A DNA stretch of 64,000 nt from Candidatus Sericytochromatia bacterium. Its GTDB lineage: Bacteria > Cyanobacteriota > Sericytochromatia > UBA7694. The DNA is taken from positions 9,271-73,270 of the forward strand of contig JADMKE010000014.1 of the NCBI GenBank assembly GCA_018780035.1, given 5' to 3'. Under the pieces are notes generated by a model. The model saw only the letters and a list, made by a program, of their open reading frames with translations. It did no database searches and was not told the DNA's origin. Positions 6,352 through 64,000 of this stretch are shown one piece after another (within the stretch, counting starts at the first letter, position 1; each line of letters begins with the position of its first letter). The translations under genes were made by a program, and so were the position numbers.

Positions 6352-6380
6352 TTGAATTTAAAAGGAGAGAAACACCGCTT

Positions 6381-7166: not shown

Positions 7167-7241
7167 TTTCGAATCTGACCTGAAATAGCGGGCTTCAAGA
7201 ATTGAATTTCCCGCATTTATGGGCCATAATGAGGTTACACT

Positions 7242-7637
7242 GTGAGGATTTCAGCTTTGAACCATCCGGGATTCACCCCACCCCTACACCCCACTCCCGC
7301 AGCCCAGGCCGCAGGCGCAGTTCGTGCTGCAGAAAAAAACAGTGATCCCCGCCTCAAAAAAGCGGTTCAAGAATTTGAGGCCCTGTTTCTCACCCAAATG
7401 CTCCAGGAAATGCGCAAAACCGTTCCTGAGGGCGGCCTGTTTGAGCACTCAGGTCAAGACCGCATGTATGAGAGCATGATGGATGAACAATTGGGCTACC
7501 AATTGGCCCAAGGCCGGGGTATGGGTCTGTCTCAGGCCCTCTACCGACAATTGCTGCGCTCTGCCGATGCCGTGCCCGCCGCCAAGGTCGACCAGGCCGC
7601 CCAGCCCGACCAAGCCGCCCAAATTCGGGAGGTCTGA
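7242..7637 (+). CDS. flagellar rod-binding protein (FlgJ N-terminal Rod_binding domain type)
   Basis: QEFEALFLTQMLQEMRKTVPEGGLFEHSGQDRMYESMMDEQLGYQLAQGRGMGLSQALYRQL matches the rod-binding domain consensus. It sits directly after flgG. Confidence 0.75.
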   Translation: MRISALNHPGFTPPLHPTPAAQAAGAVRAAEKNSDPRLKKAVQEFEALFLTQMLQEMRKTVPEGGLFEHSGQDRMYESMMDEQLGYQLAQGRGMGLSQALYRQLLRSADAVPAAKVDQAAQPDQAAQIREV

Positions 7638-7644
7638 CGCTTAA

Positions 7645-8640: not shown

Positions 8641-8645
8641 AAAAC

Positions 8646-30802: not shown

Positions 30803-31393
30803 ATGAAAAAGCGACTTCTTTTAACTCTCACTTTGGCCACTTGCCTGAGCGGATGTTACGCCTGGGAAATGGTCTTAGAAGATCCGCTGGATCGGGTCGA
30901 AAAACGCCAAGCAGATCTCTGCCCATTGGCGGTGCTGCCAACAGCGCAAACAAGCAGCAAAGCCCCTGCGGATTTTGAATGGGACAAACTCAACCAAACC
31001 TTGGCACGCCAATTTCCGCGTGAATTGGCGCTGCAGACCTTGGCTTATCAGGGCGAAGCCTGTTCTTCAGACAGTACTGAAAGTGTAACCACAAAAGAGG
31101 GCGCCCCACCGCTTTTGGTTCGGGGTTGGGTCAAAGCCCAAGAATACCAGCAAAGTCAACAGGGCACGCCGCTGGGTTGGCCTGGCAGACAAGAAACAGC
31201 CCGTTTAGAAATCAAAATGGAATTGCATTTGGCCATCTGGCAAAGACAACCTGCTCTGCGCTTAAAAGAGGTCACAGTCTCAGAGACCGCACGGGCAGCC
31301 CACAGCGATCGCCCCCTTTTATTGGCTCAATTGCAAGAGCGGCTCGTTCAAAAAGCCTTTCAGGGCTTACAGACCCATTACAGCTACCGCTGA
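30803..31393 (+). CDS. hypothetical lipoprotein
   Basis: Lipobox LSGC. Converges on the flhB end with a 10-nt overlap. Confidence 0.55.
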   Translation: MKKRLLLTLTLATCLSGCYAWEMVLEDPLDRVEKRQADLCPLAVLPTAQTSSKAPADFEWDKLNQTLARQFPRELALQTLAYQGEACSSDSTESVTTKEGAPPLLVRGWVKAQEYQQSQQGTPLGWPGRQETARLEIKMELHLAIWQRQPALRLKEVTVSETARAAHSDRPLLLAQLQERLVQKAFQGLQTHYSYR

Positions 31394-32457
31394 GAAAAGT
31401 CTTCAATCCGTCCTGTCATTTGATAGACGTAGATCAATACCTCTGAGACAGCCGCATAGAGCTCAGCAGGCACCTCCTGCCCCACCTCCACAGAACGAAA
31501 GAGCGCCCGTGCCAGAGGTTTGTTTTCCAAAATCGGCACCTGATATTCGCGCCCCCGCTCCTTGATGCGCTCGGCAATCGCCTCCGCGCCTTTGGCCACG
31601 ACCTGTGGTGCATTCATACTCTCAGGTTTGTATTCAATCGCCACCGCCAAGTGGGTTGGATTGGTGAGAATCACGTCGGCACGGGGAATCGATTCCATCA
31701 TGCGCTGCAAAGCTGCTTTGCGTTGTAATTGTTTGATCTTGGCTTTGATCTGAGGATCGCCTTCTGAATTGCGGTGTTCGTCTTTGATCTCCTGTTTACT
31801 CATGCGAATCCCGCGTTCGAAGTACCAGCGCTGCCAAATCAGATCGACAATCGCCACGATCAGCATCACTGCCCCCAATTTCCAAGAGAGTTCCCAAACC
31901 ACAGCAGCCATCAGACGACCAGTCTCACTGAGAGGCATATGCACCGTTTGCAATAATTGATTGTAATGGCTGGTCAAAATGGAGATTGCGAGCCAGAGAA
32001 AAATGCTGATCTTGACCAGGTTCATACCGAGTTGCATCAGCGGCTGCATGGAAAAAAGCCGCTTAAACCCCTGAACAGGATTGAGTTTTGTAATATCGGG
32101 TTTGATCGAGTAAAAGGAGAGATGCAGCCCCACTTGGCTGATATTGCTGATCACGGCCGTAATAATCAAAGCCAGAAAAAGCGGTGCCAAAGCAACCAGC
32201 ATGCCCATTGAGATCTGCCCCATTAAGGCCATAAAGCCATTGACACTGATGTCTTTGGGAAAATTGTTCCAGAGCTGATAGGTGCTGGTCTGCACATAAT
32301 GTACAACTGCTGGGAAATAAAATTTGAGAAAGACAATTGCCACGATAAACAACAGCGCCGTGTTAAATTCCTGGCTTTTGGCTGTCTGTCCCTTGCCTCG
32401 CAACTCGCCACGCCTGCGGGGGGTGGCTTTCTCTGTTTTTGAAGGATCTGCCATCAA
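31384..32457 (-). CDS. flhB: flagellar export apparatus protein FlhB
   Basis: NPTH autocleavage motif (ILTNPTHLAVAIEY), four N-terminal TM helices, 357 aa. Confidence 0.95.
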   Translation of the reverse strand: MMADPSKTEKATPRRRGELRGKGQTAKSQEFNTALLFIVAIVFLKFYFPAVVHYVQTSTYQLWNNFPKDISVNGFMALMGQISMGMLVALAPLFLALIITAVISNISQVGLHLSFYSIKPDITKLNPVQGFKRLFSMQPLMQLGMNLVKISIFLWLAISILTSHYNQLLQTVHMPLSETGRLMAAVVWELSWKLGAVMLIVAIVDLIWQRWYFERGIRMSKQEIKDEHRNSEGDPQIKAKIKQLQRKAALQRMMESIPRADVILTNPTHLAVAIEYKPESMNAPQVVAKGAEAIAERIKERGREYQVPILENKPLARALFRSVEVGQEVPAELYAAVSEVLIYVYQMTGRIEDFSQR

Positions 32458-33215
32458 ATGACCTGTGCCAATTGCTGCAATAATTGCAGCAGAAGATCGT
32501 GAATAAACTGAAAAGTGAAATAGAGCGAAAAGAGCAAACTCAAAAGCCCTATATAAATTTTAATCGAAAAGCTGAGCACAAGGATATTCATTTGCGGTGC
32601 CGTGCGTGCAACCAACCCCAGAATCAGGTCAATCAAGGTCAAAACACCACAAATCGGAGCGGCAATGATCAGCGCCACCAGAAAAATCTGGGCAAAGAGC
32701 GCAAAAATGCGCTCCAAAATCAGCTGGTTAAAGACCAAGGTTCCGACAGGAACTGCCTTAAAACTCTTCTGAAAGGCCAAAATCAGAAAATGATGGCCAT
32801 TGAGAGAAAAGAAAATCAGGATTGAGATAATATAATAGACTTCTGACAAAAGCGGGCGCTGGGTCTGAGAATCGGGATTGAGAATATTGGCTTGGGCAAA
32901 GCCCATCTGCAGACCAATAAACTGCCCAGCCAGAATCATGCCCTCAAAAATCAACGAGGCACACCAGCCATAAATCAGGCCCACAATCAATTCCAAAAGA
33001 CAGGCAATCAAATACAGGATCGCGTCTTCGGGAACAGGTTTAAGCGGTATCAGCGGAAAGACCGCAGCGGCAATCAGCAGCGACAACATCAAGCGCACCT
33101 GATTGGGAACGCGCTGCTGGCCAAAAATCGGCGCGGTTAAAAACAGGCCACTGCTGCGCAGGGCCACCAGCGCAAAGAGCGGGAGCTGCGCCAGAACCTG
33201 AGAATAGAGCTCCAT
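32454..33215 (-). CDS. fliR: flagellar export apparatus protein FliR
   Basis: Polytopic 253-aa membrane protein. 4-nt overlaps with flhB and fliQ. Confidence 0.9.
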   Translation of the reverse strand: MELYSQVLAQLPLFALVALRSSGLFLTAPIFGQQRVPNQVRLMLSLLIAAAVFPLIPLKPVPEDAILYLIACLLELIVGLIYGWCASLIFEGMILAGQFIGLQMGFAQANILNPDSQTQRPLLSEVYYIISILIFFSLNGHHFLILAFQKSFKAVPVGTLVFNQLILERIFALFAQIFLVALIIAAPICGVLTLIDLILGLVARTAPQMNILVLSFSIKIYIGLLSLLFSLYFTFQFIHDLLLQLLQQLAQVI

Positions 33216-33217
33216 GG

Positions 33218-33493
33218 CTAAAACTTAACAGCAGCCGGAATGCCCAGAATCAGCGAGGTCGAAAAGTCCATAATCATATGCAACATCCAAGGCCCCAAAA
33301 GCATCATCACAATCCCCACAATCACCACTTTGGGAATAAACGTGAGGGTCATTTCGTTGATCTGGGTCACGCTTTGAAAGAGGCCCACCAAAATCCCAAC
33401 TACAGCACTGGTCAGCAGCATCGGCGCCAGGAGCTGCGCCGTCAGGGTCAGACCCTGTTGCAAAATTTGCAAAAACAGATCTTCGGGATTCAT
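33218..33493 (-). CDS. fliQ: flagellar export apparatus protein FliQ
   Basis: LFQSVTQINEMTLTFIPK motif. The true start is probably the MNPEDLF methionine (~91 aa); the track ORF started at 33532. Confidence 0.9.
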   Translation of the reverse strand: MNPEDLFLQILQQGLTLTAQLLAPMLLTSAVVGILVGLFQSVTQINEMTLTFIPKVVIVGIVMMLLGPWMLHMIMDFSTSLILGIPAAVKF

Positions 33494-34257
33494 GAGAAAC
33501 TGCCGATCAGGGCCTGGCTGAGAATGTTCCAACCATCGATCAAGACAAACAGAATCAGCTTAAAGGGCAATGAGACCACCGTCGGAGGCAACATCATCAT
33601 GCCCATCGACATCAGGGTACTGGCCACGACCATATCAATGATCAAAAATGGGATATAGACCAAAAAGCCAATCAGAAAAGCCGTCTTGAGTTCGCTGGTG
33701 ATAAAAGCCGGGATCAAGACATGGGTGGGCACTTCTTCGGGCAATTTGGGGCGCGGCGCTTTGGCCAAACTGAGATACAACTCCAAATCGGGCTGGCGCA
33801 CCTGTTTGAGCATAAAGCGGCGAAAGGGCAAAATCCCCGCTTCCAAGGCCTGCTCTTGATTGATCTGTTTTTTGAGAAAGGGCTGAAGGGCTTTATCGTT
33901 GGCCTCTTGAAAATCAGGCATCGAGATAAACAAGGTCATAAACAAAGCCATACCCACCAAAACCTGGTTGGGGGGAGCCTGTTGGGTGCCCAAAGCCTGG
34001 CGCAAAAAACCCAGGACTATCACAATCCGGGTAAAAGGCGTCATCATGACCAAAATCGAAGGTGCAAGCGCCATAACCGTAAACAACAACAAAAGCTGAA
34101 CACTGAAGACGATCTCTTGGGGCGTGCGGGCCTGCTCAATCGGGATGCGGGGAATGGGCAAGGTCTGGGCCTGAACAGCCAACGACCAGAGACCACTGGA
34201 GAGCAAAACCCCAGCAGAGAGAAAAGATTTCTGAAGCAGAGACTGAATTTGAAACAT
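33490..34257 (-). CDS. fliP: flagellar export apparatus protein FliP
   Basis: Signal peptide plus MMTPFTRIVIVLGFLRQALG...LFMTLFIMPDF. Confidence 0.95.
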   Translation of the reverse strand: MFQIQSLLQKSFLSAGVLLSSGLWSLAVQAQTLPIPRIPIEQARTPQEIVFSVQLLLLFTVMALAPSILVMMTPFTRIVIVLGFLRQALGTQQAPPNQVLVGMALFMTLFISMPDFQEANDKALQPFLKKQINQEQALEAGILPFRRFMLKQVRQPDLELYLSLAKAPRPKLPEEVPTHVLIPAFITSELKTAFLIGFLVYIPFLIIDMVVASTLMSMGMMMLPPTVVSLPFKLILFVLIDGWNILSQALIGSFS

Positions 34258-44516: not shown

Positions 44517-45692
44517 ATGTCTGTTGCCATGTCTAATCAAACTCAAAATCTGGTTTTGATTATTGATGACGTGCCACAAAATCTGATGGTTTTGCGGGCA
44601 TCGCTTGAACGCCAAGGGTATCAAGTCGAAGAGGCCGCCAGTGGCAGAATTGCCTTGCAAATGTTGGAAAGCATTACACCCGATTTGATCTTGCTTGATG
44701 TGATGATGCCCGATTGGGGCGGATTTGATGTCTGCAAAAAACTCAAAGAAATGCCTCATACAGCACCTATTCCCGTGGTTTTTTTAACGGCCCGCACTGA
44801 GCAGGCAGATATTTTGCAGGGCTTTTTGGCCGGGGGGGTGGACTATATCACCAAACCCTTCCATGTTCAGGAGTTATTGGCGCGGGTTCACACCCATATC
44901 TCACTCAAAAAAGCCCAAGACATGCTGGTGCAACATGCCTCACAGCTCGAAAAACAGGCAGAAGATCTGCGTCAACTCAATCGTGAAAAAGATGAATTTT
45001 TGGCGATTGTTTCCCATGATTTGCGTTCCCCTTTAAACGCCATTTCGGGGGCCGCACAAATCTTGCGCGAACAGATTCAAGATTTAAAAAAACCCGATAT
45101 GGAGAGTTATACCGCCATGATCGAGCGCAATGCCGATCGGATGTTGGCGATTATTTCTCATTTATTGGATATCCACCGACTCGAAAACGGCAAAATTCAC
45201 ACCCACCTCAGTTGGTTTTCACTTCAGGATTTATTGGAGCAAATTCGGGGAGATTACCAGAAAAGAGCTGACGAAAAAGAACAGAGTTTGGTTTTAGAAA
45301 TTGATCCCGAATTGCCTACGCTGCAAAGCGATCCTCTTTTGCTGCGCGAAATTCTCGACAATTTGGTCTCCAATGCCCTCAAATTTTCGGCGGGCAAAAC
45401 CCAGGTAACACTGAGGGCCCGCTTCGGAGATAACAGCCTGGGCGAAAAACAAATCAAAATTGAAATCGAAGATCAAGGGCCGGGCTTCACCGCCGAAGAC
45501 AGTTCGCACATGTTTAAAAAATTTACCCGGCTCTCAGCCCGCCCCACAGCGGGTGAATCCTCAACAGGACTGGGACTGTCGATCGCCCTGCAACTCAGTC
45601 GTCTCTTACAGGGGCAACTCGAATACCAATCACAACCCCAGGGCAGTCGTTTCTGTTTGGCACTGCCCCTGTTTTTCCCGCGTCAGACCTGA
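44517..45692 (+). CDS. hybrid response-regulator / histidine kinase (REC-HisKA-HATPase)
   Basis: LVLIIDDVPQN...DLILLDVMMP...KP receiver, then H-box FLAIVSHDLRSPLNAI, then N/G boxes (DNLVSNALKF, DQGPGF, GLGLSI). Confidence 0.9.
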   Translation: MSVAMSNQTQNLVLIIDDVPQNLMVLRASLERQGYQVEEAASGRIALQMLESITPDLILLDVMMPDWGGFDVCKKLKEMPHTAPIPVVFLTARTEQADILQGFLAGGVDYITKPFHVQELLARVHTHISLKKAQDMLVQHASQLEKQAEDLRQLNREKDEFLAIVSHDLRSPLNAISGAAQILREQIQDLKKPDMESYTAMIERNADRMLAIISHLLDIHRLENGKIHTHLSWFSLQDLLEQIRGDYQKRADEKEQSLVLEIDPELPTLQSDPLLLREILDNLVSNALKFSAGKTQVTLRARFGDNSLGEKQIKIEIEDQGPGFTAEDSSHMFKKFTRLSARPTAGESSTGLGLSIALQLSRLLQGQLEYQSQPQGSRFCLALPLFFPRQT

Positions 45693-47617
45693 AAACCGAT
45701 CAAATGCCAGGTTTGTAGCCAAAAGATATATCCACCCGTGGTAAGCAATTGCAGCAAGCCATTCAGGCGATCGGGCTTTGGCCAAACCCGCAAGGCTCCC
45801 AGCGCCAAAAGGGCAGAAACCCCTGTAAAAAAGAGTTGCAAAAGCGGCAAAACCAAAAGCCCAAACAACCAGGGATTTAAGGGATCCCGCCAAGCCAAAC
45901 TCATTTCCCCCGGCAGCGCCTCCGCAAAAAAGACCCAGGGGAAGCCGATTAAAAAAACCAGGCCAGAACCCGAAGCCAAGGTCATCAGCAGGTAAGGCGG
46001 CGCATTTTCACTCTCTTGCTGTTCTTCGGGCTCAATCGGAGCCGTCGCATGCCAATATTGCCAAAGATTGCGCAAAAATCCCAGACCAAAGATCAGCCCA
46101 AACAGGCCCCAAAGCCCCCATTGCAAAGGCGGCCTTGCCGTTGCCTTGATTGGCAGATACGCTCCACCCGCTCCCTGAAAAGACTTCAGCATCAGGGCTG
46201 ATTTGTCCAAAGTGGCAGTCCCAGCCAGCGGAACAAAAGCAATCTGCTCAGAGTGCCCCTTCAATTGGAAACGAGCGGCTGAAATCGGCTCCCAGATAGA
46301 ATTTTGCCCAAAGCCACCAAAGGGATCTTGGCCCCGGCTGGTAATACTGAGATCACCATTGGCCAAGGTTTTGACCTCCAGCATGCCCCGCTTGAGACGC
46401 ACCAAGGCGGTCAGACTCTGGGTGTGAAAATGGGGGTAACCATAGACCCCATCGGGGGGAAATGGTTCTGAGTGAGTCGGGTTTTGACGTGGCTGGGGGT
46501 GAATCCCCAACCAGCTATCCAACATTTGGCGGGCCAAAGTGGGCGCTTCGCGCCGCAGCCCCAAATAGGCTGCTTTGCCCGTTTGGGGCTGAACCACCCA
46601 CAACTGCGAAAGCCCCATTTGTGTGCTTTCGCGAAAATACACAGGTCCGCCCCTGGGTGGCGAGGCTGGATAGGGCAAAAAACCCAGACTTTGAGATTCC
46701 CCATTGCCAGCAGGTGACTTAAATAAAAGCTGACGGGTGGCAAGGGAGAGTCCTGGGCGTTTTCCGACGAGTATTTCCAACCATTTTTGCAAATCCGCCA
46801 CAGACAGCAAACGTTGATCGCTGGCGGGCGCAGCACTGTACAAATGCGGGTAATTCCAGAGTTGTCCAGATTCCAATAAAGTGCCCTGTAAAACAGCGGC
46901 CTGAGAGCCTCCCGTTTTCAAAGAAGCCAATCCCCAGCGCTGTTGCATGCGTTTGTCTGCAGGAATTTTGGGATTCTGAACGTCCAAGAGATAAGCGGCC
47001 AAAACAGCCCCCCAACTGCCTGGCGTGGCAATACTTCCGGGCTCTTTGACCAAGGGCTTGAGGCCATAATTGAGCAATTGTTCCAGGCTGGGTACCCGCT
47101 TGGGATTTTCGAGCCAATGTCCCTGATAAAACTCAGGAAAGCCATCGCGTTCAAGCATCAGATGGCGCAGGGTCAAAGGCGTGGAAAAAGGGTTGACCAC
47201 TTGCAAACGATTCAGATAGGTATTGATATTTTCATCCAGGTTCCAATCGCCCTGTTGCACGCCCTCCAAAAGCAAAGCCGTGTTCAACAATCCCGATAAA
47301 CGGCCCAAAGGCACCAGCGTAGCGGCAGTCACAGCGGGATCGCTGCGTTTGGGATCAGCATAGGTCTCAATCTGAGCAGAAGAGGCTGGGCCTGCAATCG
47401 TCACAAACACAGCTCCAGGCACTTGGTTCTTTGTCAATTCTGCTTGCCAATCCAGAAGCTTTGCCTCAGCTTTAAATGCCAAAACCAGCCACAAAGCCAT
47501 GAAAAAAAGAGGCAGGGACCGCTGCAGACAGCGCCCCCTGCCTTTGGGCTTTAACAAAACTAATGCGAAGCCAAAATGGCTTCGATACTGGGATAGAGGC
47601 TGTAGTTTTGAGACCAA
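45683..47617 (-). CDS. beta-lactamase-fold (serine-hydrolase-like) protein with C-terminal polytopic membrane domain; catalytic SxxK apparently lost
   Basis: The N-domain resembles class C/PBP-like (AVFVTIAGP...ETYADPK...TLVPLGRLSGLLNT); the position of SVSK reads GRLSG. The C-terminal ~130 aa forms 4-5 TM helices. Start uncertain (47617 or internal Met). Confidence 0.55.
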   Translation of the reverse strand: MVSKLQPLSQYRSHFGFALVLLKPKGRGRCLQRSLPLFFMALWLVLAFKAEAKLLDWQAELTKNQVPGAVFVTIAGPASSAQIETYADPKRSDPAVTAATLVPLGRLSGLLNTALLLEGVQQGDWNLDENINTYLNRLQVVNPFSTPLTLRHLMLERDGFPEFYQGHWLENPKRVPSLEQLLNYGLKPLVKEPGSIATPGSWGAVLAAYLLDVQNPKIPADKRMQQRWGLASLKTGGSQAAVLQGTLLESGQLWNYPHLYSAAPASDQRLLSVADLQKWLEILVGKRPGLSLATRQLLFKSPAGNGESQSLGFLPYPASPPRGGPVYFRESTQMGLSQLWVVQPQTGKAAYLGLRREAPTLARQMLDSWLGIHPQPRQNPTHSEPFPPDGVYGYPHFHTQSLTALVRLKRGMLEVKTLANGDLSITSRGQDPFGGFGQNSIWEPISAARFQLKGHSEQIAFVPLAGTATLDKSALMLKSFQGAGGAYLPIKATARPPLQWGLWGLFGLIFGLGFLRNLWQYWHATAPIEPEEQQESENAPPYLLMTLASGSGLVFLIGFPWVFFAEALPGEMSLAWRDPLNPWLFGLLVLPLLQLFFTGVSALLALGALRVWPKPDRLNGLLQLLTTGGYIFWLQTWHLIGFQV

Positions 47618-48489
47618 TAATCAATAATCTGACCATTGCTCAACACAATCCAAGCGCCTTGGAACTGGTCGTCTTGAGACATGACCCGCACCATTTTGTC
47701 GCCGTGATTGAAAGTCCATTTGCGACCATCGTTGTAGAAATGGTCAATATTCATGCCTTGACGGGTTTTGATATGGAATTGTTCATTGGCAATATCCCAA
47801 GTACTGTCCACAACAAATTCAATGATCTGCCAAATATTGCCGGAGTCCAAAAAGCCCTGATCGACAGCCAAACCTGAATCATTGGGCAGGCCAAAGACGG
47901 CATTCTGGGGGAAATAGGCGGCAGACTGTTTCAGGCTGGCGTCACGGCCCCAATCGTGGTGAAGGGTGCACATGATATTGTGAGCCAGACCAAAGCCATG
48001 GGAATCATGGGAATCGGCTTCTACAGCACCCATCATGGTTGAACAGAGCTGATCAGCGCCTGCAGAGAAGCCCACCGTGAGTAAACCCCGATCTTGACGT
48101 TGGTGCAAGAGGCGCTCAAACAGACCCGCATCACCGTAATAGCGCTCACCCAGGCTCATATAACGATTGCGGCCAAGGATGCTGCTACCGCCACCGAGGA
48201 TCACGACTTGAGAATTGATCACCCAATCAAAGAACAAATCCACATCTTTTTGTGCGAGGTGATCGTTGTAGTAAAAATTGCGCGGTTCAAGTCCCCATTT
48301 GCGGAAAAAGTCAAAATACCAGCGGAAGGTTCCCCAGCTATATTCCTGGCTGTCTTGGCTGCCCATCGACATGGGCAAATAGAGCACGGATTTATTGTTG
48401 GGGTCACGCAGGGCTCTTTCGACAATCCACCAGCGGTGGATTTCTTCACTGCGGTTGTGAGAGCTGTAAATAAAAGCGGTTGGAAACAT
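47560..48489 (-). CDS. peptidase S51 / class-I glutamine-amidotransferase-like family protein
   Basis: VVILGGGSS...LLTVGFSAGAD, the nucleophile elbow G-x-S-A-G. Confidence 0.5.
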   Translation of the reverse strand: MFPTAFIYSSHNRSEEIHRWWIVERALRDPNNKSVLYLPMSMGSQDSQEYSWGTFRWYFDFFRKWGLEPRNFYYNDHLAQKDVDLFFDWVINSQVVILGGGSSILGRNRYMSLGERYYGDAGLFERLLHQRQDRGLLTVGFSAGADQLCSTMMGAVEADSHDSHGFGLAHNIMCTLHHDWGRDASLKQSAAYFPQNAVFGLPNDSGLAVDQGFLDSGNIWQIIEFVVDSTWDIANEQFHIKTRQGMNIDHFYNDGRKWTFNHGDKMVRVMSQDDQFQGAWIVLSNGQIIDYWSQNYSLYPSIEAILASH

Positions 48490-48710
48490 AGCTACCTCTG
48501 TTATTGTGATATTTTGCGCTGGTTTGAGCCAGATTTTTTTTGGACCAAGTTCTGTTAAATCTTAATTGAATCGATCGCTACTGTATTAAATAGATATCCT
48601 GTATTATTAAATGTAAGTTAAATGACGCCCTAAAGTTCAGGCTTCTATCTAAGATACTGACTAGACGCATTATAACTAAAAATCGAACGAGCGAGGAGTG
48701 TGGACTTCCA

Positions 48711-50177
48711 ATGGCAGTTCCAGTAGGCGGCTTCAGTACAGTCAACGGCAATATTATGCCATTCGGAGATCTGGAGCATGTGCTCATGCAATTACGCGCT
48801 CATGGTCTAGATACCCAAGAAATTAAGACGCGCGCATCTTATCGCAGTGTTCCCCGCAATTATGGCAATGTCGACTTAGAAATGACAGCGGAATTGACAC
48901 GCAATGTCAACGTCTTTAACGCCACCAACAGCGCATACAACATGCCTGTTGGCACACCGCTTTTTGTCGAAACCATGCGTGGGGATTCGGACCGCTATGT
49001 TGGTTTGGTTTCTGCCTCGGGTTCAAGTACCCAAATTCAGATCGACCGCGTTCAAACCCCCATGGAAACCCAACTACATGTAGGTGAAGAAATCGAAATC
49101 AATGGTGAACAACGCACAATCACGGCCATCGGTGTGGTTGGGAATGTGTTGACCGTTGATGTGGGGGCAGCCTTTACCAATCTGGTTGCAGGGGTTGTGC
49201 CCCTGGGTTCTACCATTGTGATCAAAGGCCATGATTACGCCAATCCCCATCTCTCCCCCGTGCATCGCCTGACCGATAAATACGGCAGCAATATCATTGA
49301 CGATAACCGCTACCAAATTGATCGCACGACCGGAATTATCCGCTACCGGCCTTCATTTGGGACCTTGGCAAACAGTGTTTGGCACCCCGAAGCCCAGCTC
49401 AACAAACCCTATTATTTTGGCCGCGAAATGGTCATTCGGCGTACACCGCCCCCCGCCGGTCCGGGTGTGATTACCTTGCCCCTGCCTGTCGCTCAGACAG
49501 ATGTTTTTGACAGCGTGACCGGCAATGAAGTCTTGGGTCACCCGGATGATCCGGTGTCTTCTGGCTCCAATGGGGCTATTGCACTGCCTGGGGTAACCAC
49601 CAATTTCGGCAGGGCCTATCCCGATGGGGAGTTCAGCAATATTCGCATCTCTGCGCCAGCAGGTGTGACCTTTGAGGTTGAACTCAATGGCGCCAAATTG
49701 GCGGTTTTCAGCGACCCCACCACTCCCGGTGGCGGCAATGTGATCATCCCCTTCTTTGATCCAGATTTTAACAATGACCAGCTCAAAGGCAGCCGCAATG
49801 TCGATCCCGACATCTATATCCAGCGCTTCCTGAAAGAGGGCAATAACAATCTGGTGATTAAAGCCACCTCCACCACGGCGGGCAGCAATGGCATCCGCGT
49901 GGAAGGCATCTTTAATGGCCTTGACCTGGAGACAGGGGCAATTGCGGGTGTAAAACCCCATTCAGCCACTTCAGTGATTGCCTCAGACTGGTCCGCCTCA
50001 CAGCACAGCATTTTGGGTGTCGCTGGATTTGTCAATTTTGAACTGGGTGACCGCATTGCCTTGGAAGACGTCAATGACGAAGTTCAAAAAATGCAAGGTG
50101 TATTAGAATCGCTCACCACCTTGATTGCTGGGATTGATATCAATCAGTTGACCAGTTTGCTTTCTGTAGTTAAATAA
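48711..50177 (+). CDS. hypothetical 488-aa protein, paralogue A of MAVPV family
   Basis: No signal peptide. It shares the MAVPV N-terminus and the L(T/S)xxLSVV C-terminal segment with the next ORF. The middle is Gly/Asn/Thr-rich and beta-rich. Confidence 0.6.
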   Translation: MAVPVGGFSTVNGNIMPFGDLEHVLMQLRAHGLDTQEIKTRASYRSVPRNYGNVDLEMTAELTRNVNVFNATNSAYNMPVGTPLFVETMRGDSDRYVGLVSASGSSTQIQIDRVQTPMETQLHVGEEIEINGEQRTITAIGVVGNVLTVDVGAAFTNLVAGVVPLGSTIVIKGHDYANPHLSPVHRLTDKYGSNIIDDNRYQIDRTTGIIRYRPSFGTLANSVWHPEAQLNKPYYFGREMVIRRTPPPAGPGVITLPLPVAQTDVFDSVTGNEVLGHPDDPVSSGSNGAIALPGVTTNFGRAYPDGEFSNIRISAPAGVTFEVELNGAKLAVFSDPTTPGGGNVIIPFFDPDFNNDQLKGSRNVDPDIYIQRFLKEGNNNLVIKATSTTAGSNGIRVEGIFNGLDLETGAIAGVKPHSATSVIASDWSASQHSILGVAGFVNFELGDRIALEDVNDEVQKMQGVLESLTTLIAGIDINQLTSLLSVVK

Positions 50178-50209
50178 ATTGTTTGAGTTATTCTTGAAGG
50201 AGAAAATAC

Positions 50210-50791
50210 ATGGCTGTACCCGTTGTAATTGGAAAATCCACTTTTGACTATGCGCCTTTGCGCAATGAACAGTCCCGTTTGGCAAAGACCCTGGTCGTGC
50301 CGAGCCCCCGTGACAAAGACGACACCTCACAAACCCTCGAAGTGGTCGATGATCAGGCTACACCATTTAAATATCCCACCTTTATCAAGGTTTTTTTCGA
50401 CAAACCCGGTCAATTGCCCCGCTTTGAACTGTGGATGAAAGACAACTTTGACCAACAGTACAATCTCTCTCAAAACTTGGCCACGATCGGCATCAACGAC
50501 GATCCCCTGGTTGCAGGTTTCTTGGCCCAGAGCAACGTGGCCGCGAATTATGTCATCAGTCCTGTTACAGGTGAAATCCGGCGCGGTCCTGGTGCGGTCT
50601 TAAATGCCGTCACAGGCTTGGTGACTGGTGGAACCCTGGTGGGCACCGTCAAATTTGACGGCGTCACGGGTCTCGCTCTGGCAGCCATCAATACCCGCAT
50701 TGCAGATATCAGCAATTCCGTTGAAGGTCTGACCAAGGTCCTCAGCGTCGTTGGCGGGAATTTGGAAGCGACACTTAACCTGATTCGTTGA
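50210..50791 (+). CDS. hypothetical 193-aa protein, paralogue B of MAVPV family
   Basis: Starts MAVPVVIGKSTFDYAP and ends ...LTKVLSVVGGNLEATLNLIR. An RBS gaaggag lies upstream. TTGA overlap with the next gene. Confidence 0.6.
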   Translation: MAVPVVIGKSTFDYAPLRNEQSRLAKTLVVPSPRDKDDTSQTLEVVDDQATPFKYPTFIKVFFDKPGQLPRFELWMKDNFDQQYNLSQNLATIGINDDPLVAGFLAQSNVAANYVISPVTGEIRRGPGAVLNAVTGLVTGGTLVGTVKFDGVTGLALAAINTRIADISNSVEGLTKVLSVVGGNLEATLNLIR

Positions 50792-52596
50792 TCGCCCCCA
50801 CCAGCTTAATTATCCTCACTTACAATTGCCTGCGTTATACGCAGGCTTGTTTGTTGAGTATTTCTCAACACAGCCCCCACTGCGAAGTGATTGTCGTGGA
50901 CAATGCCTCTTCTGATGGCACGCCCGCATATCTGGCTGAACAGGCGGGCCTAAAATTGATTCTCAACCCACAAAACAAAGGTTATGCTGCAGGCAATAAC
51001 CAGGGTTTGGCCATCAGCCAGGGCCAATTTTTGCTCTTACTCAATAACGATGTGATTGTCACCCCCCATTGGCTGGAACACATGTTGGCCCATTTTGAAA
51101 AGCATCCCCGTTTGGGAATCATTGGCCCGCGCACCAATTGCATCAGCGGCGCTCAGCAACTGAACCTCGATTATGATCCCTGGGATATTGTCAGTATCAA
51201 CGCGGTGGCAGAACAGCGGGCCCGGCATTTTTCGGGACAACTCAGCAAAACCCAACGTGTAGCTGGCTTTGCCATGCTCCTGCGGCGTGAGGTCTACCAA
51301 ACCATTGGCGGGCTCGATGAACAATTTGGCACCGGTAATTTTGAAGACGACGATTATTGCCAACGGGCCCTGCAGGCCGGTTATGAAATTGGGATCGCCG
51401 AAGATGCCTTTATTCATCACTTTGGCAGCGTCAGTTTTCTCGAAAATGGCATTGACTACAAAGCGCAGATGGAGACCAACCGCCGTTTGTTTTTTTCCAA
51501 ATGGGGCACAAACACGCCCAGCGCCTATTTGCCCAGTTGGCCCGAAGTACAACGCCTCTTGCCCCGCGGTTTTACTGATGTGCTGGATCTCGGCTGCAAA
51601 AGCGGCAAATTTGGCGCGGCCCTCAAACAGCGTGATCCCCATTTTCAACTCACGGGCATTGAGTCCAATCCCGCTCTGGCTGCGGAGGCCCGCCTGATTT
51701 ATGATCAATTGCTGGAATGCCCCTTGGAAAGCGACTGGTCGTTGGCTGACCAGCGCTTTGATGCAGTGGTTTTTAACGGAAGTTTAGAAATCTGCCGCCA
51801 ACCGGGGGATCTGTTAAAAAAGGTACAGTCATATTTAAAATCAGATGGTATTATTATCGTTAATGTCGCTAACGCCTGCTATTGGCCGCTTTTAAAAAAA
51901 TGGCTGGGCGGCAAATGGGACTATCGTGAGGGCGCTTTGCCAGAAAAAGGGCAGCTGCGTTTTTATACTTCACAAGACCTTGTTATAATGTTTGAATCAT
52001 GTGGTCTGATGGTGGAGCGTTGGTATGCCACGCCTGGATATTCCCCCACAGACGGGCTGACTTTGGAAAAAGCTGAAAAAATGTTGCAAGAACTGGGAAT
52101 AAATAATCGATTAAGTGATGAAGCTGGTGTTGCCCGCTGGATTGGGATCGGGGGTCCAAAAAAGACCCAGGCCCCGCGTCAAAAGCGTTATGGCATTCGA
52201 CAGCCGGTTGTCTATTGGGAAAATCCCAGTTCAGATCAACCCATTCTTCTCAACCCCGACATTCCCAGTACAACCACCCTTTTACCTGAGAGCAATATCA
52301 CAATCCACTGTGGACGCCCCGAACAGATCCACCTGAATTCAGGAACCTTTGTGCACCTGGCCCGTCTTTCTGGAAATCCCACCCTCTCTCTGGAGGGTTT
52401 AGAGCGCCTGAAAGCGATGGATCACATCTGGGTAGATTCTGAAGACCTCCAAAAAACCCTGCTTGAGCGAGGGTTTTCCCCTGAACAGACGTCATTTTTG
52501 CCGCTGATTGGCCCTGAATGGTCAACAGAGCAAACAGCAGAACTGCGTCACCAACTCTGGCACCTGTGCGAAAAATTGAAACTACTGAGGAGCTAA
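50788..52596 (+). CDS. fusion protein: GT2 glycosyltransferase plus class-I SAM-dependent methyltransferase plus C-terminal domain of unknown function
   Basis: TTG start. GT2: SLIILTYNC...VIVVDNASSDGT...LLLNNDVIV...DDDYC. Methyltransferase motif I VLDLGCKSGKFG...DAVVFNGSLE. Confidence 0.75.
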   Translation: MIAPTSLIILTYNCLRYTQACLLSISQHSPHCEVIVVDNASSDGTPAYLAEQAGLKLILNPQNKGYAAGNNQGLAISQGQFLLLLNNDVIVTPHWLEHMLAHFEKHPRLGIIGPRTNCISGAQQLNLDYDPWDIVSINAVAEQRARHFSGQLSKTQRVAGFAMLLRREVYQTIGGLDEQFGTGNFEDDDYCQRALQAGYEIGIAEDAFIHHFGSVSFLENGIDYKAQMETNRRLFFSKWGTNTPSAYLPSWPEVQRLLPRGFTDVLDLGCKSGKFGAALKQRDPHFQLTGIESNPALAAEARLIYDQLLECPLESDWSLADQRFDAVVFNGSLEICRQPGDLLKKVQSYLKSDGIIIVNVANACYWPLLKKWLGGKWDYREGALPEKGQLRFYTSQDLVIMFESCGLMVERWYATPGYSPTDGLTLEKAEKMLQELGINNRLSDEAGVARWIGIGGPKKTQAPRQKRYGIRQPVVYWENPSSDQPILLNPDIPSTTTLLPESNITIHCGRPEQIHLNSGTFVHLARLSGNPTLSLEGLERLKAMDHIWVDSEDLQKTLLERGFSPEQTSFLPLIGPEWSTEQTAELRHQLWHLCEKLKLLRS

Positions 52597-52605
52597 CTCG
52601 CAATC

Positions 52606-55566
52606 ATGAAACGTTATCTAGCTTTGGCCTGCGCCGCGTCACTTTTGGTTGTCGGATGTCCGGCACCCCAGCAGGTGGTCCCCCTCGATATCTTCAGGAT
52701 TGAAGGAGATGTCTATCTGCCTCAGGGAGACACGTCTCTGGTGGCCCGCGCCCCCTTTAACCTGCTCGCACCCGTGCAGAGCCTCTTGGATCCGGCAGCA
52801 GAAGCCGCAACAGGTCTGGTCAAAGCCGCAGAAGGCCTTGAGGTGCGTCTGATTCGCATTGACGACAACGGCAAAGCCGTTTCGACAGAACCGCTGGCCA
52901 CCGCCAAAACCGATGCCAACGGGCATTATAAAATTGACATTCCGACGGAACAGATCAGTCTGCCCGCCTCAAATATGGTGGTGGAAGTCGGCGATTATGC
53001 CTCTGGCAAATTTCTGCGCAATTTTGCCACCAGCGACAAACTCGATCTGAGCCCCGTCACCACCGCATCGGTGCAACTCTTGGTGGATCGCAACGAACCC
53101 CTGTTTTCGATTCCCCTCAACGTGATCGCTGAAGCACAGATTTTGGCGAACCAAAGCACTGAGTCGATCAATTACGCCACCACGCCTCTGGCCGCTTCGG
53201 TCAGCAATACCCTCGCCAGTCTCAAGTCAAATACCACCCTGAGCACCCGCATCGACCAATTGATGACCCGCGTGGTCTCCGGCACAGTCATGGCCCCCAG
53301 TGGCCGCGTGGCCAGTGTGCCACCCAAACTGCGTTTGGACAGCTGGTTGGTCCCCTCTGCCGAAGCCCTGAGTGGTCTTCAGGCTGTGGGCGCCAATGTG
53401 CGCGTCAATTTGCACAAAATTGACAACAATGGCAATGTCTTGGGGGCTGCTTTGGCCACCACATTGACCCGTTCCGACGGCAAATACAGCTTTTCGCTGC
53501 CCCAAGAAGCGCTGATCTCCAGCGAGTTTGTGGTCTCCGTGGGCAGCGGCCCAAGCCAAATGCGCGCCATGTTGAGCGGCAGCTCCAGCCTGAATATCTC
53601 TCCGCTCTCCGAATTGGTCAGCCGCCTGATTATCAACAATGGCACCGTGCTCAAACAGAACAAGGTGCCGATCACCGAATTCAGCCCGCCTGAGATCAAT
53701 GCCGTGTTGGACGCCGTTCAGCGCAGCACCGACACCACCAATTTGGGCGGAGCCAGCAATGTCTTTGCGGTCATGTCGGTGATTCAGCCCGTGGCCGAAA
53801 ACAACAGCCAAGTCACCACCACCCTGCGGGCTGTGGCGGGCACCCCCAGCCCCTTAATGACCGGCACCGTTGTTCCCGCTACCGACAAAGACAGCATTTT
53901 GCTGACCGGCACCGTCACCGCTGGCGCAACCGTGACCGTTGAAGGCGGCACCTCTGTGGTTCAGCAAGTGCTGGGCGCAGGTGAGACCAGTTTTTCGATC
54001 AATGTGCCGCTCAAACGCAATTCCACCCACCAATTGCAGGTCAAAGCGACCGTCAATGGTCTGACCAGCTTGCCGACAGTCGTCAATCTGCGGGCAGATA
54101 CCCTCAACCCCCGGATTGATACCAATAAAATTATTGCCCGCAACCCCAGCGGACAGTCGTTTGAGACGATTATCACGGGCTCCAGCGGTGCAATTGAAGA
54201 TTCTGGCCGCTCCACCCTGGTGATTCAGGGCGGAAAAATTGGCAATGCCACCACAATTCAGACCGATGAAAGTGGTGCTTTCTCCGCCAATCTGGCCGCA
54301 GATTCTGGCGATATTCTGAACTTGACTGCGATTGATGAAGCGGGCAACCGCTCAACCGCCACAGTCGTGGTAGGCGGCCCCGGCCCCGTGATCACCCAGA
54401 TTCGCCAAGAATCTCTGATTGGCCGCGACTCCCCCTTTGCCAGCCGCGTTGTCACCATCGAAGGAGCTGGTTTTGATGGCAATCTGGCCAGCAATATTGT
54501 CACCTTTATCAGCCCCTTTGGCCAAAGCAGCACCTCGGTGCCCAGTTCGGTCTCGACGGATCGCCGCAAATTGGTCTCACCGGTTGTCAGTGGCCTGGTT
54601 GGCCGCCTCAGCGATCTGCCGACAGATGTGCGCGTCAAAGTAACTGTGAACAATATCGACAGCAACGATACCCGTACCTTTACACTTTTGCCCTCGATCA
54701 CGGCCATGAGCCAAAGCCAACTCAGCGGCAATGGGCAGTCGGAATTCTTCTATTTTGACAAATCTGCCAATAGCCAGAATATGTTGATGAGCAGCCAGTC
54801 TGCTGGTGAATCCAGCATTCTGCTGATAGATATCAACGGCAATGTGATCAACCGCAATTTGGCAAGCAAAATCACCCATGATTCGATCTTCAGAGACATG
54901 ACCCTCGACAACAGCGGCAACCTGCTTGTGACCAATTTTGACGCCACCTTGGCGGGCAAAGCACGGCAATTGCCAGATATCCGTCCGACTTACCGCATCA
55001 GCAAATACCGCCTGCAAGGCAGTGGGGCTGAGCGCCAGTTGGCCAGCCGTCTGTCTGAATCGGTCGATCTCGGTGCAGAACCCGGTGCAATTGCCTTCAG
55101 TTCTAGCAATAACAAGATCTATGTTGCTCTGCCCAGCAAAGGTCAGGTCTTGAAAATCGATTATACGGGAGAGGTCTTTGGCCGCCCTGAAATTCTGCTG
55201 GAGGGTTTGCCCAAACCGCTCAAAGACCTGGAACTCGATGCCAGTGGCAAATTTATGTATATCACCGTGGGAGACAGCGTCAGCATCTTCCGCCTGACTT
55301 TAAATGCCCTGGGTTCGGTCGATTTGTTTGAAAGCAATTATGTGGCTCCGATGGGCAATGGCAATGGCCGCATGACCTCTGATGGCCTGGGCAATCTCTA
55401 CGTGACGTTGGGTACAGGAATTGACCGGATTGATGAAAAAGCCAAACGGGTCAATTTGGTGCCTGTACTGGAAGGCCGCCAACCCACAGTGGGTCTGGTC
55501 TATGCCAATGGTCAGATCTTTGTCAATCAGCTGAATGTGAAAGACCTTTTCAGACTCAGCCCCTAA
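52606..55566 (+). CDS. giant surface lipoprotein with Ig-like/IPT domains and C-terminal beta-propeller (NHL/YVTN-like)
   Basis: Lipobox LLVVGC. IPT-like RVVTIEGAGFDGNLASNIVTF and Big-like TAIDEAGNRSTATVVVG. The C-terminal region has propeller-blade-type repeats. Confidence 0.75.
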   Translation: MKRYLALACAASLLVVGCPAPQQVVPLDIFRIEGDVYLPQGDTSLVARAPFNLLAPVQSLLDPAAEAATGLVKAAEGLEVRLIRIDDNGKAVSTEPLATAKTDANGHYKIDIPTEQISLPASNMVVEVGDYASGKFLRNFATSDKLDLSPVTTASVQLLVDRNEPLFSIPLNVIAEAQILANQSTESINYATTPLAASVSNTLASLKSNTTLSTRIDQLMTRVVSGTVMAPSGRVASVPPKLRLDSWLVPSAEALSGLQAVGANVRVNLHKIDNNGNVLGAALATTLTRSDGKYSFSLPQEALISSEFVVSVGSGPSQMRAMLSGSSSLNISPLSELVSRLIINNGTVLKQNKVPITEFSPPEINAVLDAVQRSTDTTNLGGASNVFAVMSVIQPVAENNSQVTTTLRAVAGTPSPLMTGTVVPATDKDSILLTGTVTAGATVTVEGGTSVVQQVLGAGETSFSINVPLKRNSTHQLQVKATVNGLTSLPTVVNLRADTLNPRIDTNKIIARNPSGQSFETIITGSSGAIEDSGRSTLVIQGGKIGNATTIQTDESGAFSANLAADSGDILNLTAIDEAGNRSTATVVVGGPGPVITQIRQESLIGRDSPFASRVVTIEGAGFDGNLASNIVTFISPFGQSSTSVPSSVSTDRRKLVSPVVSGLVGRLSDLPTDVRVKVTVNNIDSNDTRTFTLLPSITAMSQSQLSGNGQSEFFYFDKSANSQNMLMSSQSAGESSILLIDINGNVINRNLASKITHDSIFRDMTLDNSGNLLVTNFDATLAGKARQLPDIRPTYRISKYRLQGSGAERQLASRLSESVDLGAEPGAIAFSSSNNKIYVALPSKGQVLKIDYTGEVFGRPEILLEGLPKPLKDLELDASGKFMYITVGDSVSIFRLTLNALGSVDLFESNYVAPMGNGNGRMTSDGLGNLYVTLGTGIDRIDEKAKRVNLVPVLEGRQPTVGLVYANGQIFVNQLNVKDLFRLSP

Positions 55567-61879: not shown

Positions 61880-62019
61880 AATATCTGCTGGATACCTGTC
61901 TTCTCTCTGAATTACTCAAGCCACAACCCCAAGAGACTGTGATTGAATGGTTTCAAACGGTTCCAGAAACACAGCTCTATTTGTCTGTTTTGACCCTGGG
62001 AGAACTTCATAAAGGGTGA
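61876..62019 (+). pseudogene. vapC: vapC (PIN-domain toxin) truncated after 47 codons
   Basis: MKYLLDTCLLSELLKPQPQETVIEWF...VLTLGELHKG then TGA. A full PIN domain is ~130 aa. TTAGCAA-type AT-rich repeats follow immediately, and composition drops to AT-rich. Confidence 0.75.
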
Positions 62020-62138
62020 GGGCAAGTTACAAGTTTAAAACCGGTGCTAGATTTAGCAAATTAGCAATGGTGTCAAGGGCAGTGAGTTAGTAAGGTAGTA
62101 ATTAGCAAATGACAATAATTCTTTTAAAAATTCAACAA

Positions 62139-62903
62139 TTAAATTTTTATATCAGCTGGTGAATTTCTTTTTTGAGAGCTTTCTTCTTTACTCATAAAAT
62201 CTTTATACATTCGGATATTGTTTTTTAAAATATTCGAATCTTTTGTCGCTTCAGATCTTGATCTTATTTTTAATGTTACATAATCTCGATTTCCCAACAA
62301 ACCTGTACTACTAACTTCATATCCATATTTTTCCCCCAAATAAATTTTTACGTTTTCTGCCCAAGCAAAAATTTTAAATTGAGAATTTTTCTCAATTTGC
62401 TCTCGAACATATTCGCCTCGGGTTTCTTCTGTATATTCTGTTCCTTGAAAAATTAACTTTGACCTAGAAAAATCATCAGCGAGACTTTTGCTATAAACCT
62501 TTGTTAACAGAAGTTGAGCTTTTGAGTTTTCTCGAGTCCAAATATCTAAATATTCTACATCCTCCCATAGTCTTGAATCAGTGTATTGACTAATTTCTTT
62601 ATCTCGATTATATTTTCTTTTTACAAGAGAAAGTGTTTCTTCTACTAAGTCGGCTTTTTTATCGCCCATTCGATTGGAAGTAGGATATGAAAGTTCAATA
62701 TCTAGGAAAACATTATCTTGCAACTGGCGAAATGCAATTATCCGCCAGACATCCATAGAATCAAGAGGACCAATATAATAGGTAGCTAAAAACGGATGTC
62801 TATTTATCCAATTAATGGTATCTTGGTATTTGTCTCCAGGAAGAGCATAAGCAGAATGACAAATCGATACAAATACTGATGTTAATAACAATATTTTTTT
62901 CAT
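62139..62903 (-). CDS. secreted hypothetical protein (AT-rich island 2)
   Basis: Signal peptide MKKILLLTSVFVSICHSAYA. Lys/Glu/Tyr-rich with low-GC codon usage. Confidence 0.6.
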   Translation of the reverse strand: MKKILLLTSVFVSICHSAYALPGDKYQDTINWINRHPFLATYYIGPLDSMDVWRIIAFRQLQDNVFLDIELSYPTSNRMGDKKADLVEETLSLVKRKYNRDKEISQYTDSRLWEDVEYLDIWTRENSKAQLLLTKVYSKSLADDFSRSKLIFQGTEYTEETRGEYVREQIEKNSQFKIFAWAENVKIYLGEKYGYEVSSTGLLGNRDYVTLKIRSRSEATKDSNILKNNIRMYKDFMSKEESSQKRNSPADIKI

Positions 62904-63002
62904 ATAGTCAATATTCCTAATATATCAATTATTTCTGACTCTAAATGAGTCCCAAGGTACACTTTCTGATGTTTGGCAAATGGCGAAGAATTTTAAGGTA
63001 AT

Positions 63003-63674
63003 TTAAACATCGGCAGAAACTATCGTTGCTCTGAAATCCAAAAAAACATGCAATAAATCAAGATGACTGCCATCTGAGCGGGTATGCTTACTTTCCCATT
63101 CATGGGGCAAATCTTTGAGAACCTGGACTTTTTTTAGGGGTTCAACAATGTTTAAAGTTGGATCCTCTTTTGAATTATCAAAGATCTTTTGTAATTGTCT
63201 AAACCAATGATCTGGAGATAAGTCCTGAATATAAGCCAACATTCCCGCTTCGGGCTGCTCCACGGCATACTCACATTTCAAAAAACACTGCATACCCCCA
63301 TCACCAGTATATTTACGGATAGTATGAGTACCTTTTTTTAAACGTTTGGCCTCAAAGCAAAATTTGGGTCGTGGTTTTGTGTGACTGTTAGAAATCACAA
63401 TATCTATGCGTTTGCGATTTTTTCCAGAAGCGGAAACATGTGGAACATGGGTTTCTTCTCCGATATGATAGTGTTCATATTCTTGTGGAGTGTCTCGATC
63501 ATTAAATCTTAAGTCTATGGCTTCTGTTAGCCAACCAGTGATATCTTCTTCTTGATTTTCGGGAGTCACTTTTGATTTGATATCTTCGTATCCCCAAGCT
63601 AAAAGCTGATGCACACACTCTCTAACTCTCGAAAAGTAAGTTTGCCAGAGAGCGTCTGGCTTATTTAAAATCAC
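63003..63674 (-). CDS. PD-(D/E)xK-like protein, paralogue of the 17392..18072 protein
   Basis: KRIDIVIS...KFCFEAKRLKKG...YTGDGGMQCFLKCEYA aligns to RPDFTCKK...ISFHIECKRLGS...YVTNGIARFDSAHEYG. The N-termini also match (ALWQ vs ALWEK). GTG start overlaps the upstream ORF stop (GTGA). Confidence 0.65.
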   Translation of the reverse strand: MILNKPDALWQTYFSRVRECVHQLLAWGYEDIKSKVTPENQEEDITGWLTEAIDLRFNDRDTPQEYEHYHIGEETHVPHVSASGKNRKRIDIVISNSHTKPRPKFCFEAKRLKKGTHTIRKYTGDGGMQCFLKCEYAVEQPEAGMLAYIQDLSPDHWFRQLQKIFDNSKEDPTLNIVEPLKKVQVLKDLPHEWESKHTRSDGSHLDLLHVFLDFRATIVSADV

Positions 63675-64000
63675 ACAAACGCTCCTGAATAACTCAGAAT
63701 CTCAGCAATGATTTCATCAGCATCAATCATGGCTTGGGTACATGTCCAATCTATCAAACGCGGAGTTTTCCAGATATGATAATATTTCCCATCCAAAACA
63801 CGCAGACCTTGTTGAACATAGAGCCATTGGCTAAAAGGCTTTTTTAAAATCTGCCATAGATGCTCATCTTCCTCAGATAGCTCTTCAAGTTTTTGAATAT
63901 AGGGAGCAAGCGGCTCTAGAGCATCAGTTATTTCTACAGTACAGGAAATAAATTCCGAGTATTGTTTTATGTTTATGAGATGATGTTTGTATGCAAATGA
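63671..64000 (-). CDS. hypothetical protein, N-terminus off-window, translationally coupled to the PD-(D/E)xK paralogue
   Basis: The minus-strand frame is open from the window end to the TGA at 63671..63673 (...KTPRLIDWTCTQAMIDADEIIAEILSYSGAFV*). No domain recognised. Confidence 0.5.
   Translation of the reverse strand, partial: SFAYKHHLINIKQYSEFISCTVEITDALEPLAPYIQKLEELSEEDEHLWQILKKPFSQWLYVQQGLRVLDGKYYHIWKTPRLIDWTCTQAMIDADEIIAEILSYSGAFV

Follow-up and report, generated by a model that had tools for sequence, protein, structure and literature searches.

Flagellar axial proteins, phage tail fibers, FimA/FimH chaperone-usher pili, and type I-secreted or S-layer proteins are the closest described counterparts of the locus reported here. 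Glycosyltransferases are also known to lie beside filament genes in flagellin and pilin glycosylation islands, a precedent that favors reading such neighbors as one system. We present here an analysis of a gene pair, A and B, in a stretch of 64,000 nucleotides (nt) (the window) from a Candidatus Sericytochromatia bacterium (GenBank assembly GCA_018780035.1, contig JADMKE010000014.1, positions 9,271 to 73,270). The Sericytochromatia are uncultured, nonphotosynthetic sisters of the cyanobacteria, and their cell surface is almost unexplored; nothing relevant was found in the motility and surface-structure literature on Sericytochromatia and Blackallbacteria. A preliminary description had joined A and B to the two genes downstream, C and D, as a candidate glycosylated filament or adhesin system of four genes. 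Comparison of loci indicates instead that the conserved unit is an operon of A and B alone, closed by a terminator of its own, and that C and D are clade-specific additions. We tentatively propose that the pair encodes an exported two-component surface fiber or adhesin. Replacing the four-gene "glycosylation system" by a core of two genes with recent add-ons shifts which genes merit study.

All four open reading frames (ORFs) are present on the plus strand at exactly the coordinates and lengths first reported. Gene A (48711 to 50177) encodes 488 amino acids (aa), the putative large subunit, and gene B (50210 to 50791), which follows a strong Shine-Dalgarno sequence (GGAG), encodes a small paralogous partner of 193 aa. 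Eight window proteins (A, B, C, D, an S51-like protein, a beta-lactamase-like protein, and, from the flanks, a response-regulator kinase and a GGDEF-EAL protein) were compared by tblastn with 15 Sericytochromatia/Blackallbacteria loci, in every one of which B directly follows A. The outer flanks of the loci vary between lineages. In three remote lineages (L020-22, L025, and L026), a B-like gene again comes directly after an A-like one; these remote pairs, one of which adjoins dnaA/dnaN, have no S51, beta-lactamase-like, GT2, or D gene nearby. The co-occurrence of the two proteins in other genomes is thus borne out. Homologues (38 clusters for A and 58 for B) come only from Candidatus Sericytochromatia, Blackallbacteria, and related metagenome-assembled genomes (MAGs), and their locus tags are adjacent. 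When one genome per GTDB species was scanned, 11 loci emerged, all from the Sericytochromatia class, and the A profile, run exhaustively as a hidden Markov model against 1.84 billion representative proteins, gave 19 clusters only. On these searches, the family is rare and lineage restricted. Neither protein matches a family in Pfam, NCBIfam, PHROG, or the PDB sequences, in line with the earlier remark that the pair fits no described family, and no relatives were found in 50,697 phage genomes (tblastn), IMG/VR viral contigs (three profiles), or plasmids. Between close relatives, A and B have diverged more rapidly than most of their neighbors: in L007/L008, identities are 85 to 86% for B and 91 to 92% for A, against 100% for the S51-like protein, 99% for D, and 99% for the GGDEF protein.

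Genes C and D are distributed patchily. C (50788 to 52596, plus strand; 602 aa) carries a GT2 domain at residues 6 to 171 (E=1.2e-27) and an S-adenosylmethionine (SAM)-methyltransferase domain at residues 254 to 409 (E=1e-12), followed by about 190 residues without a domain match, so that its description as a three-part fusion stands. D (52606 to 55566, plus strand) encodes a 986-aa lipoprotein with the lipobox LVVGC and one Big_6 immunoglobulin-like (Ig) domain (E=1.9e-10), as had been proposed; the propeller also assigned to it could not be verified by sequence. The overlapping starts noted earlier hold for B and C, which overlap by 4 nt (TTGA), but not for C and D, which are separated by 9 nt. 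Full-length C occurs in 4 of the 15 loci (L005 to L008), a remnant occurs in 1, and the remaining 10 lack it; the gene is confined to relatives whose A is at least 91% identical and is absent from all remote lineages. The remnant, in L004, is C terminal and 97 aa long: the last ~90 residues of the fusion (aa 512 to 602; window 52321 to 52596) stand there as an ORF of their own (L004 12439 to 12732), directly 5′ of the D homologue, in a Blackallbacteria MAG that has neither the GT2 nor the methyltransferase domain. In function, this small domain may go with D and not with the enzyme. D was found only in L004 to L009, a Blackallbacteria-like sub-clade, being absent from nine loci (L001, L002, L003, and L010 to L015) and from the three remote lineages; it lies outside the conserved unit.

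A strong, T-tailed hairpin lies 8 to 47 nt past B in almost every locus and is conserved in sequence. In the window, the terminator-like hairpin GCCTGCGTTATACGCAGGC with its T-rich tail (50828 to 50856, plus strand) begins 37 nt past the B stop codon; the hairpin itself (50828 to 50846) aligns with the post-B terminators of distant loci and sits inside codons 14 to 20 of C. The ancestral hairpin, compared downstream of B in L002, L013, and L015, has the form GCCTGCG...CGCAGGC followed by a T-tract. The coding region of C extends over this older A-B terminator, and the hairpin may attenuate read-through into C-D. Because A and B are adjacent everywhere, C and D are patchy, and the terminator after B is conserved, we take the two genes as the unit, which C and D would modify locally at most. 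The four-gene block sought in other genomes is therefore not conserved across the 15 loci and three remote lineages, and the conserved linkage to a dedicated glycosyltransferase expected of a protein glycosylation island was not found.

Profile comparisons support A and B as distant paralogues in colinear blocks. Pairwise BLASTP is not significant (best E=3.5); the similarity is visible only with family profiles, where it is real and colinear. End-to-end alignment of the C-terminal 51 residues gives an hhalign score of 23.3 (P=3.9e-4), compared with scores of at most 13.3 for 12 column-shuffled controls and ~10 for cross-controls, and the common C-terminal block of the preliminary description is real, though invisible to BLASTP. 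A common mid motif, [YF]xV[DN]xxTGx[IV]xR, pairs A residues 198 to 212 (RYQIDRTTGIIRYRP) with B residues 111 to 125 (YVISPVTGEIRRG) (hhalign P=0.005), and B aligns from its first residue with the N-terminal ~88 residues of the remote A-like proteins (P=1.2e-4). The shared MAVPV start is present in this genome but is partly coincidence: the A family begins with the consensus MVAVGG in 27 of 37 members and with M-x-V-P-[VI] in 7 of 37, and the B family consensus is MVVPV. In both families, the C-terminal helix always closes with hydrophobic-x-hydrophobic-hydrophobic-[RK], and the last residue is always R or K (37/37 for A and 56/56 for B). Residue 2 is almost always V or A; given the known specificity of methionine aminopeptidase, the initiator methionine is therefore likely removed from both proteins.

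AlphaFold2 models of both proteins contain a short N-terminal helix, one or more beta domains, and a C-terminal helix of ~40 residues; the predicted local distance difference test score (pLDDT) of the B model is 78. In A, the N-terminal module has a disordered start and a helix at residues 21 to 42, the core has beta-barrel and beta-sandwich domains with a GH2_N-like jelly-roll (~310 to 400), and the C-terminal module consists of a WSxSxxSxLG strand and a helix (448 to 487) ending LSVVK. In B, the N-terminal module comprises MAVPVV, a helix (15 to 29), and PSPRDKDDT, the core is a small beta domain whose loops vary in length, indel hot spots following residues 89 and 139, and the C-terminal helix (154 to 192) ends LNLIR. 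Conservation is highest at both ends of A and B. In length, the remote A-like proteins span 278 to 1381 aa; they keep both ends, namely, an N-terminal block MAVxxGG...YYVDQxTGxVYFRP...PQYFG and a C-terminal jelly-roll plus helix that matches the last 160 residues of A (hhalign E=1.5e-25). Their cores hold inserted Laminin_G_3, ConA-like 3keto-disac_hyd, Reelin-B/BNR, or GH2_N-like modules. The conservation profile and these architectures confirm the plan of conserved ends and a variable core described at the outset, and the central beta-sandwich domains of A are lectin-like or carbohydrate-binding-module-like and have been exchanged and expanded between lineages.

Neither protein has a signal peptide, as already described, or any hydrophobic segment; both have an isoelectric point (pI) near 5 (4.95 for A), and both lack cysteine. 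Taking expected counts from the window background, cysteine is depleted ~60-fold in the A family (2 of 18,185 residues; 127 expected), 9-fold in the B family (9 of 12,080; 85 expected), and 8-fold in the remote members (6 of 6,731; 47 expected). The flagellar rod proteins of the window are likewise without cysteine.

Because cysteine is nearly absent, the inserts are of lectin type, and no hydrophobic segment is present, we infer an extracytoplasmic location reached by a non-Sec route. A and B would be made without a Sec or Tat signal and exported by such a route, for which the flagellar type III apparatus of the same genome is the obvious, though unproven, candidate. The common terminal modules would serve for co-assembly and perhaps also for export, the terminal helices joining A and B into a heteromeric surface fiber, with B as its short structural subunit and A as the adhesive one that binds glycans. 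C and D joined downstream in this genus or sub-clade alone. Of the original filament-subunit reading, a subunit-like exported role remains plausible in light of the cysteine depletion, and flagellar axial kinship, the four-gene system, and sigma-28 control are not supported.

Several points weigh against a two-component fiber or adhesin. The AlphaFold2 model of A is modest (pLDDT, 66.6), and the N terminus of the Sericytochromatia A family compared directly with that of B gives no significant match (P=0.12). No secretion or assembly genes are linked to A-B in any locus. The scarcity of cysteine and the lectin-like domains speak only circumstantially for an extracellular location. To our knowledge, type III export signals are not conserved in sequence, unlike the strongly conserved M-V-[AV]-[VP] start of A and B. 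With these points weighed, the pair is a concrete candidate for the attachment of Sericytochromatia to particles, hosts, or prey, and export through the flagellar apparatus or a new route would widen the range of filament-building proteins.

One alternative casts A and B as flagellar axial proteins of extreme divergence, which would leave the cell through the flagellar type III apparatus and assemble via D0-like terminal helices; it merited direct tests because the window encodes rods, FliM/N, the export gate, and FliA. A first flagellar cluster (5554 to 9830) contains FlgF/FlgG-type rods (5554 to 6351 and 6381 to 7166), a Rod-binding/FlgJ-N gene (~7240 to 7640), FliM (7645 to 8640), and FliN/FliY with a CheC domain (8646 to 9830); a second (31384 to 34257) contains the export gate genes FlhB (31384 to 32457), FliR (32454 to 33215), FliQ (33218 to 33532), and FliP (33490 to 34257). 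Because of these two clusters, this Sericytochromatia lineage appears to be flagellated. A FliA/WhiG-family sigma-28 factor is encoded at 13206 to 13979 (TIGR02479, 265 bits; cutoff, 189.6), adjoining CheY-like regulators and a PatA_N/DUF4388 protein (11552 to 12922).

An axial identity, for example, as FlgK/FlgL hook-filament junction analogues or as an accessory filament or cap component, would fit the presence of rod proteins, FliM/N, FlhB/R/Q/P, and FliA in the same genome, the large-then-small gene order, the terminal helices around a beta core, the lack of cysteine, and the ...L-x-[LV]-I-R ending; the best local hhalign match pairs ALEDVNDEVQK of A with ALEASNVDLSK of FlgE at the start of the C-helix (P=0.04). 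However, none of the 37 A or 56 B members matches Flg_bb_rod, Flg_bbr_C, or Flagellin_N/C even at E values up to 10, and only 1 of 56 B members touches FlgK_D1 (E=0.037). The window rods are readily recognized. With custom axial profiles, the rods score 74 to 80 bits at the N terminus and 83 to 87 bits at the C terminus, and A and B score at most 7.1 (within the decoy range) and 5.6 bits, respectively. No flagellar gene lies within 10 kilobases of A-B in ~20 loci, no conserved sigma-28 promoter was found, and the N-terminal helix is short (15 to 22 residues). The resemblance of the C termini to flagellar axial ends, suggested in the preliminary description, therefore failed the Pfam, hhalign, and custom-profile tests alike. 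These tests, among them the hhalign comparison with nine axial proteins, have limited power between distant axial classes, since single sequences do not reveal FlgK's kinship with FlgG or FlgL either; the axial identity is only weakened, and we regard it as unlikely while keeping it in view. Two specific likenesses were rejected. The segment EQxRLSKTLVxPSPRDKDDT of B resembles, by eye, RLSSGLRINSAKDDAAG / EQMSTGKRVVNPSDDP of flagellin/FlgL (hhalign P=0.57; no Flagellin_N match), and the ALExxNxD likeness at the C terminus was not sustained by the custom profile against 1,516 decoy ORFs.

Control of A-B by sigma-28 (fliA), raised earlier, did not hold up. The strict sigma-28 motif is absent, and the TAAA-N15-TAAGATAC site occurs in the closest relatives only, not being conserved in distant loci. 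The sequence TAAAGTTC-N11-TAAGATAC at 48631 to 48656 is −10-like (TAnnAT), and distant loci retain it in the form C[CT]TA[AT]GATAA. This sequence lies in a divergent, AT-rich control region of 221 base pairs between the S51-like gene and A (48490 to 48710), which also contains the Shine-Dalgarno sequence GAGGAG. The elements TGTTAAA-N5/6-ATTAAGT and C[CT]TA[AT]GATAA[AT]GACAGCC of this intergenic region are common to L001, L002, and L010 to L015; they may represent an operator and a −10/start region. Neither element recurs elsewhere in the window, nor does the conserved upstream element CTAWGATAAWGACAGCC.

A and B might also form an undescribed class of non-Sec filament, in which two paralogues, independently arisen or diverged beyond recognition, would polymerize via their terminal helices in the manner of flagellar axial proteins, perhaps after flagellar type III export, with exchangeable lectin modules on the large subunit and an occurrence restricted to the Sericytochromatia. 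We judge this proposal, in its full form, to be rather unlikely.

An intracellular role would make A and B a complex linked to an S51-type peptidase, as substrate or regulator, or a storage or scaffold assembly. It would fit the lack of a recognizable secretion signal, and it draws on the S51-like gene (47560 to 48489, minus strand; 309 aa), which all 15 Sericytochromatia loci place in divergent orientation to A despite differing outer flanks, with conserved motifs in between. The protein scores marginally above the PF03575 gathering cutoff for Peptidase S51 (28.5 bits; cutoff, 23.9), has a GFSAG nucleophile elbow, and has no solved relative by sequence. Its ~309-aa family, however, is 50 to 60% identical across Planctomycetota (Uabimicrobium), Riflebacteria, Wallbacteria, Eremiobacterota, Armatimonadota, and others, where it stands alone with no conserved or A/B-like neighbors, and it looks like an uncharacterized housekeeping-type enzyme. 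The remote A-B pairs lack an S51-like gene, and it is extracellular proteins that typically show such extreme cysteine depletion and such exchange of lectin, ConA, and Laminin-G modules. An intracellular complex is therefore improbable in our estimate. A gene for a beta-lactamase-like membrane protein (45683 to 47617, minus strand; 644 aa) adjoins the S51-like gene in most Sericytochromatia loci, as a syntenic neighbor only. The S51-like and beta-lactamase-like genes as the core of the system were rejected, the S51 family being widespread and solitary and missing beside the remote A-B pairs.

A domesticated phage tail-fiber module, with A as a receptor-binding fiber bearing an N-terminal docking domain and lectin tips and B as a small partner or assembly protein (compare Stf/Tfa and Mu S/U), finds some echo: BFVD matches are enriched for tail fibers, including proteins like the T7 tail-fiber N-terminal domain (probability, 1.0; ~100 columns), Pfam gives a weak SPP1_Dit match (E=0.014), and the gene order, in which a ~190-aa partner comes after a large variable protein, fits. 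Against it, whole-chain template modeling (TM) scores do not exceed 0.2, no PHROG matches, the phage, IMG/VR, and plasmid searches described above returned no relatives, and the chromosomal context is stable, with housekeeping neighbors (dnaA/dnaN beside one remote pair) and no other phage genes. We also know of no fiber and chaperone pairs that are normally alike at both termini. We consider a fiber module very unlikely; a phage, plasmid, or viral origin of the pair was rejected, there being no relatives in those collections.

That A, B, C, and D together build a glycosylated or methylated surface filament is hardly probable, since the tight packing in the window and its closest relatives (the 4-nt B/C overlap and 9-nt C/D gap) stands against full-length C in L005 to L008 only, D missing from most loci and from remote lineages, an ancestral terminator kept between B and the body of C, and a C enzyme that could act on any glycan.

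Other features of the window lie apart from this locus. A low-GC island (14198 to 18072; 38% GC against ~51%) contains a 1064-aa MmeI/Eco57I-like type IIG restriction-modification enzyme and a 226-aa ORF and was probably acquired horizontally. A second low-GC segment (62000 to 64000; 35% GC) holds two minus-strand ORFs (62139 to 62903 and 63003 to 63674) with no Pfam match. An IS605 OrfB/TnpB (Cas12f-like) gene, seen via L027 4294 to 5637, extends over the window start (~1 to 1190, minus strand), upstream of a Peptidase_MA/PD40/Omp85-like gene (1362 to 4466).

Among described systems, the flagellar axial proteins (FlgE, FlgB/C/F/G, and FlgK/FlgL) resemble A and B in the lack of a signal peptide and of cysteine, in a short N-helix and ~40-residue C-helix around beta domains of varying size, in a hydrophobic-x-hydrophobic-hydrophobic-Arg end, and in a large gene followed by a smaller paralogue; the host of A-B also has a flagellar export apparatus. 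They differ in that no sequence or profile similarity is detectable, the A/B N terminus is strongly conserved (MVAVGG / MVVPV) without an ANNLAN-type motif, and the A/B genes never lie in flagellar clusters or carry a conserved sigma-28 promoter. Phage tail fibers and receptor-binding proteins (the T7 gp17-type N-terminal domain, the Dit galectin-like domain, and tailspike adaptors) share a modular beta-rich plan, a terminus that stays constant while lectin-like modules are exchanged, structural matches at the level of domains, and a gene order in which a large variable gene precedes one of ~190 aa. A and B, in contrast, are alike at both termini, sit in a stable chromosomal context without phage, viral, or plasmid homologues, and reach whole-chain TM scores of at most 0.2. 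Type I-secreted and S-layer proteins whose C-terminal signals stay uncleaved (for example, RsaA) are likewise acidic and cysteine poor, with no N-terminal signal and with lectin-like or adhesive cores, and co-secreted members share a conserved extreme C terminus; the C-terminal ~50 residues of A and B are compatible with a C-terminal signal. A and B differ from them in having no RTX repeats (Pfam) and no ATP-binding cassette (ABC), membrane fusion protein (MFP), or TolC genes nearby in any of the loci, though the transporters may be unlinked, and type I secretion does not account for the conserved N-terminal module. FimA/FimH pili differ in sequence and fold, having Ig-like pilin domains where the putative A/B assembly modules are terminal helices, and A-B comes without a Sec signal or an usher, chaperone, or sortase gene. 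As a functional analogy only, the FimA/FimH plan is nevertheless shared: two paralogous subunits with a common assembly module, one of which adds a lectin domain that varies between lineages.

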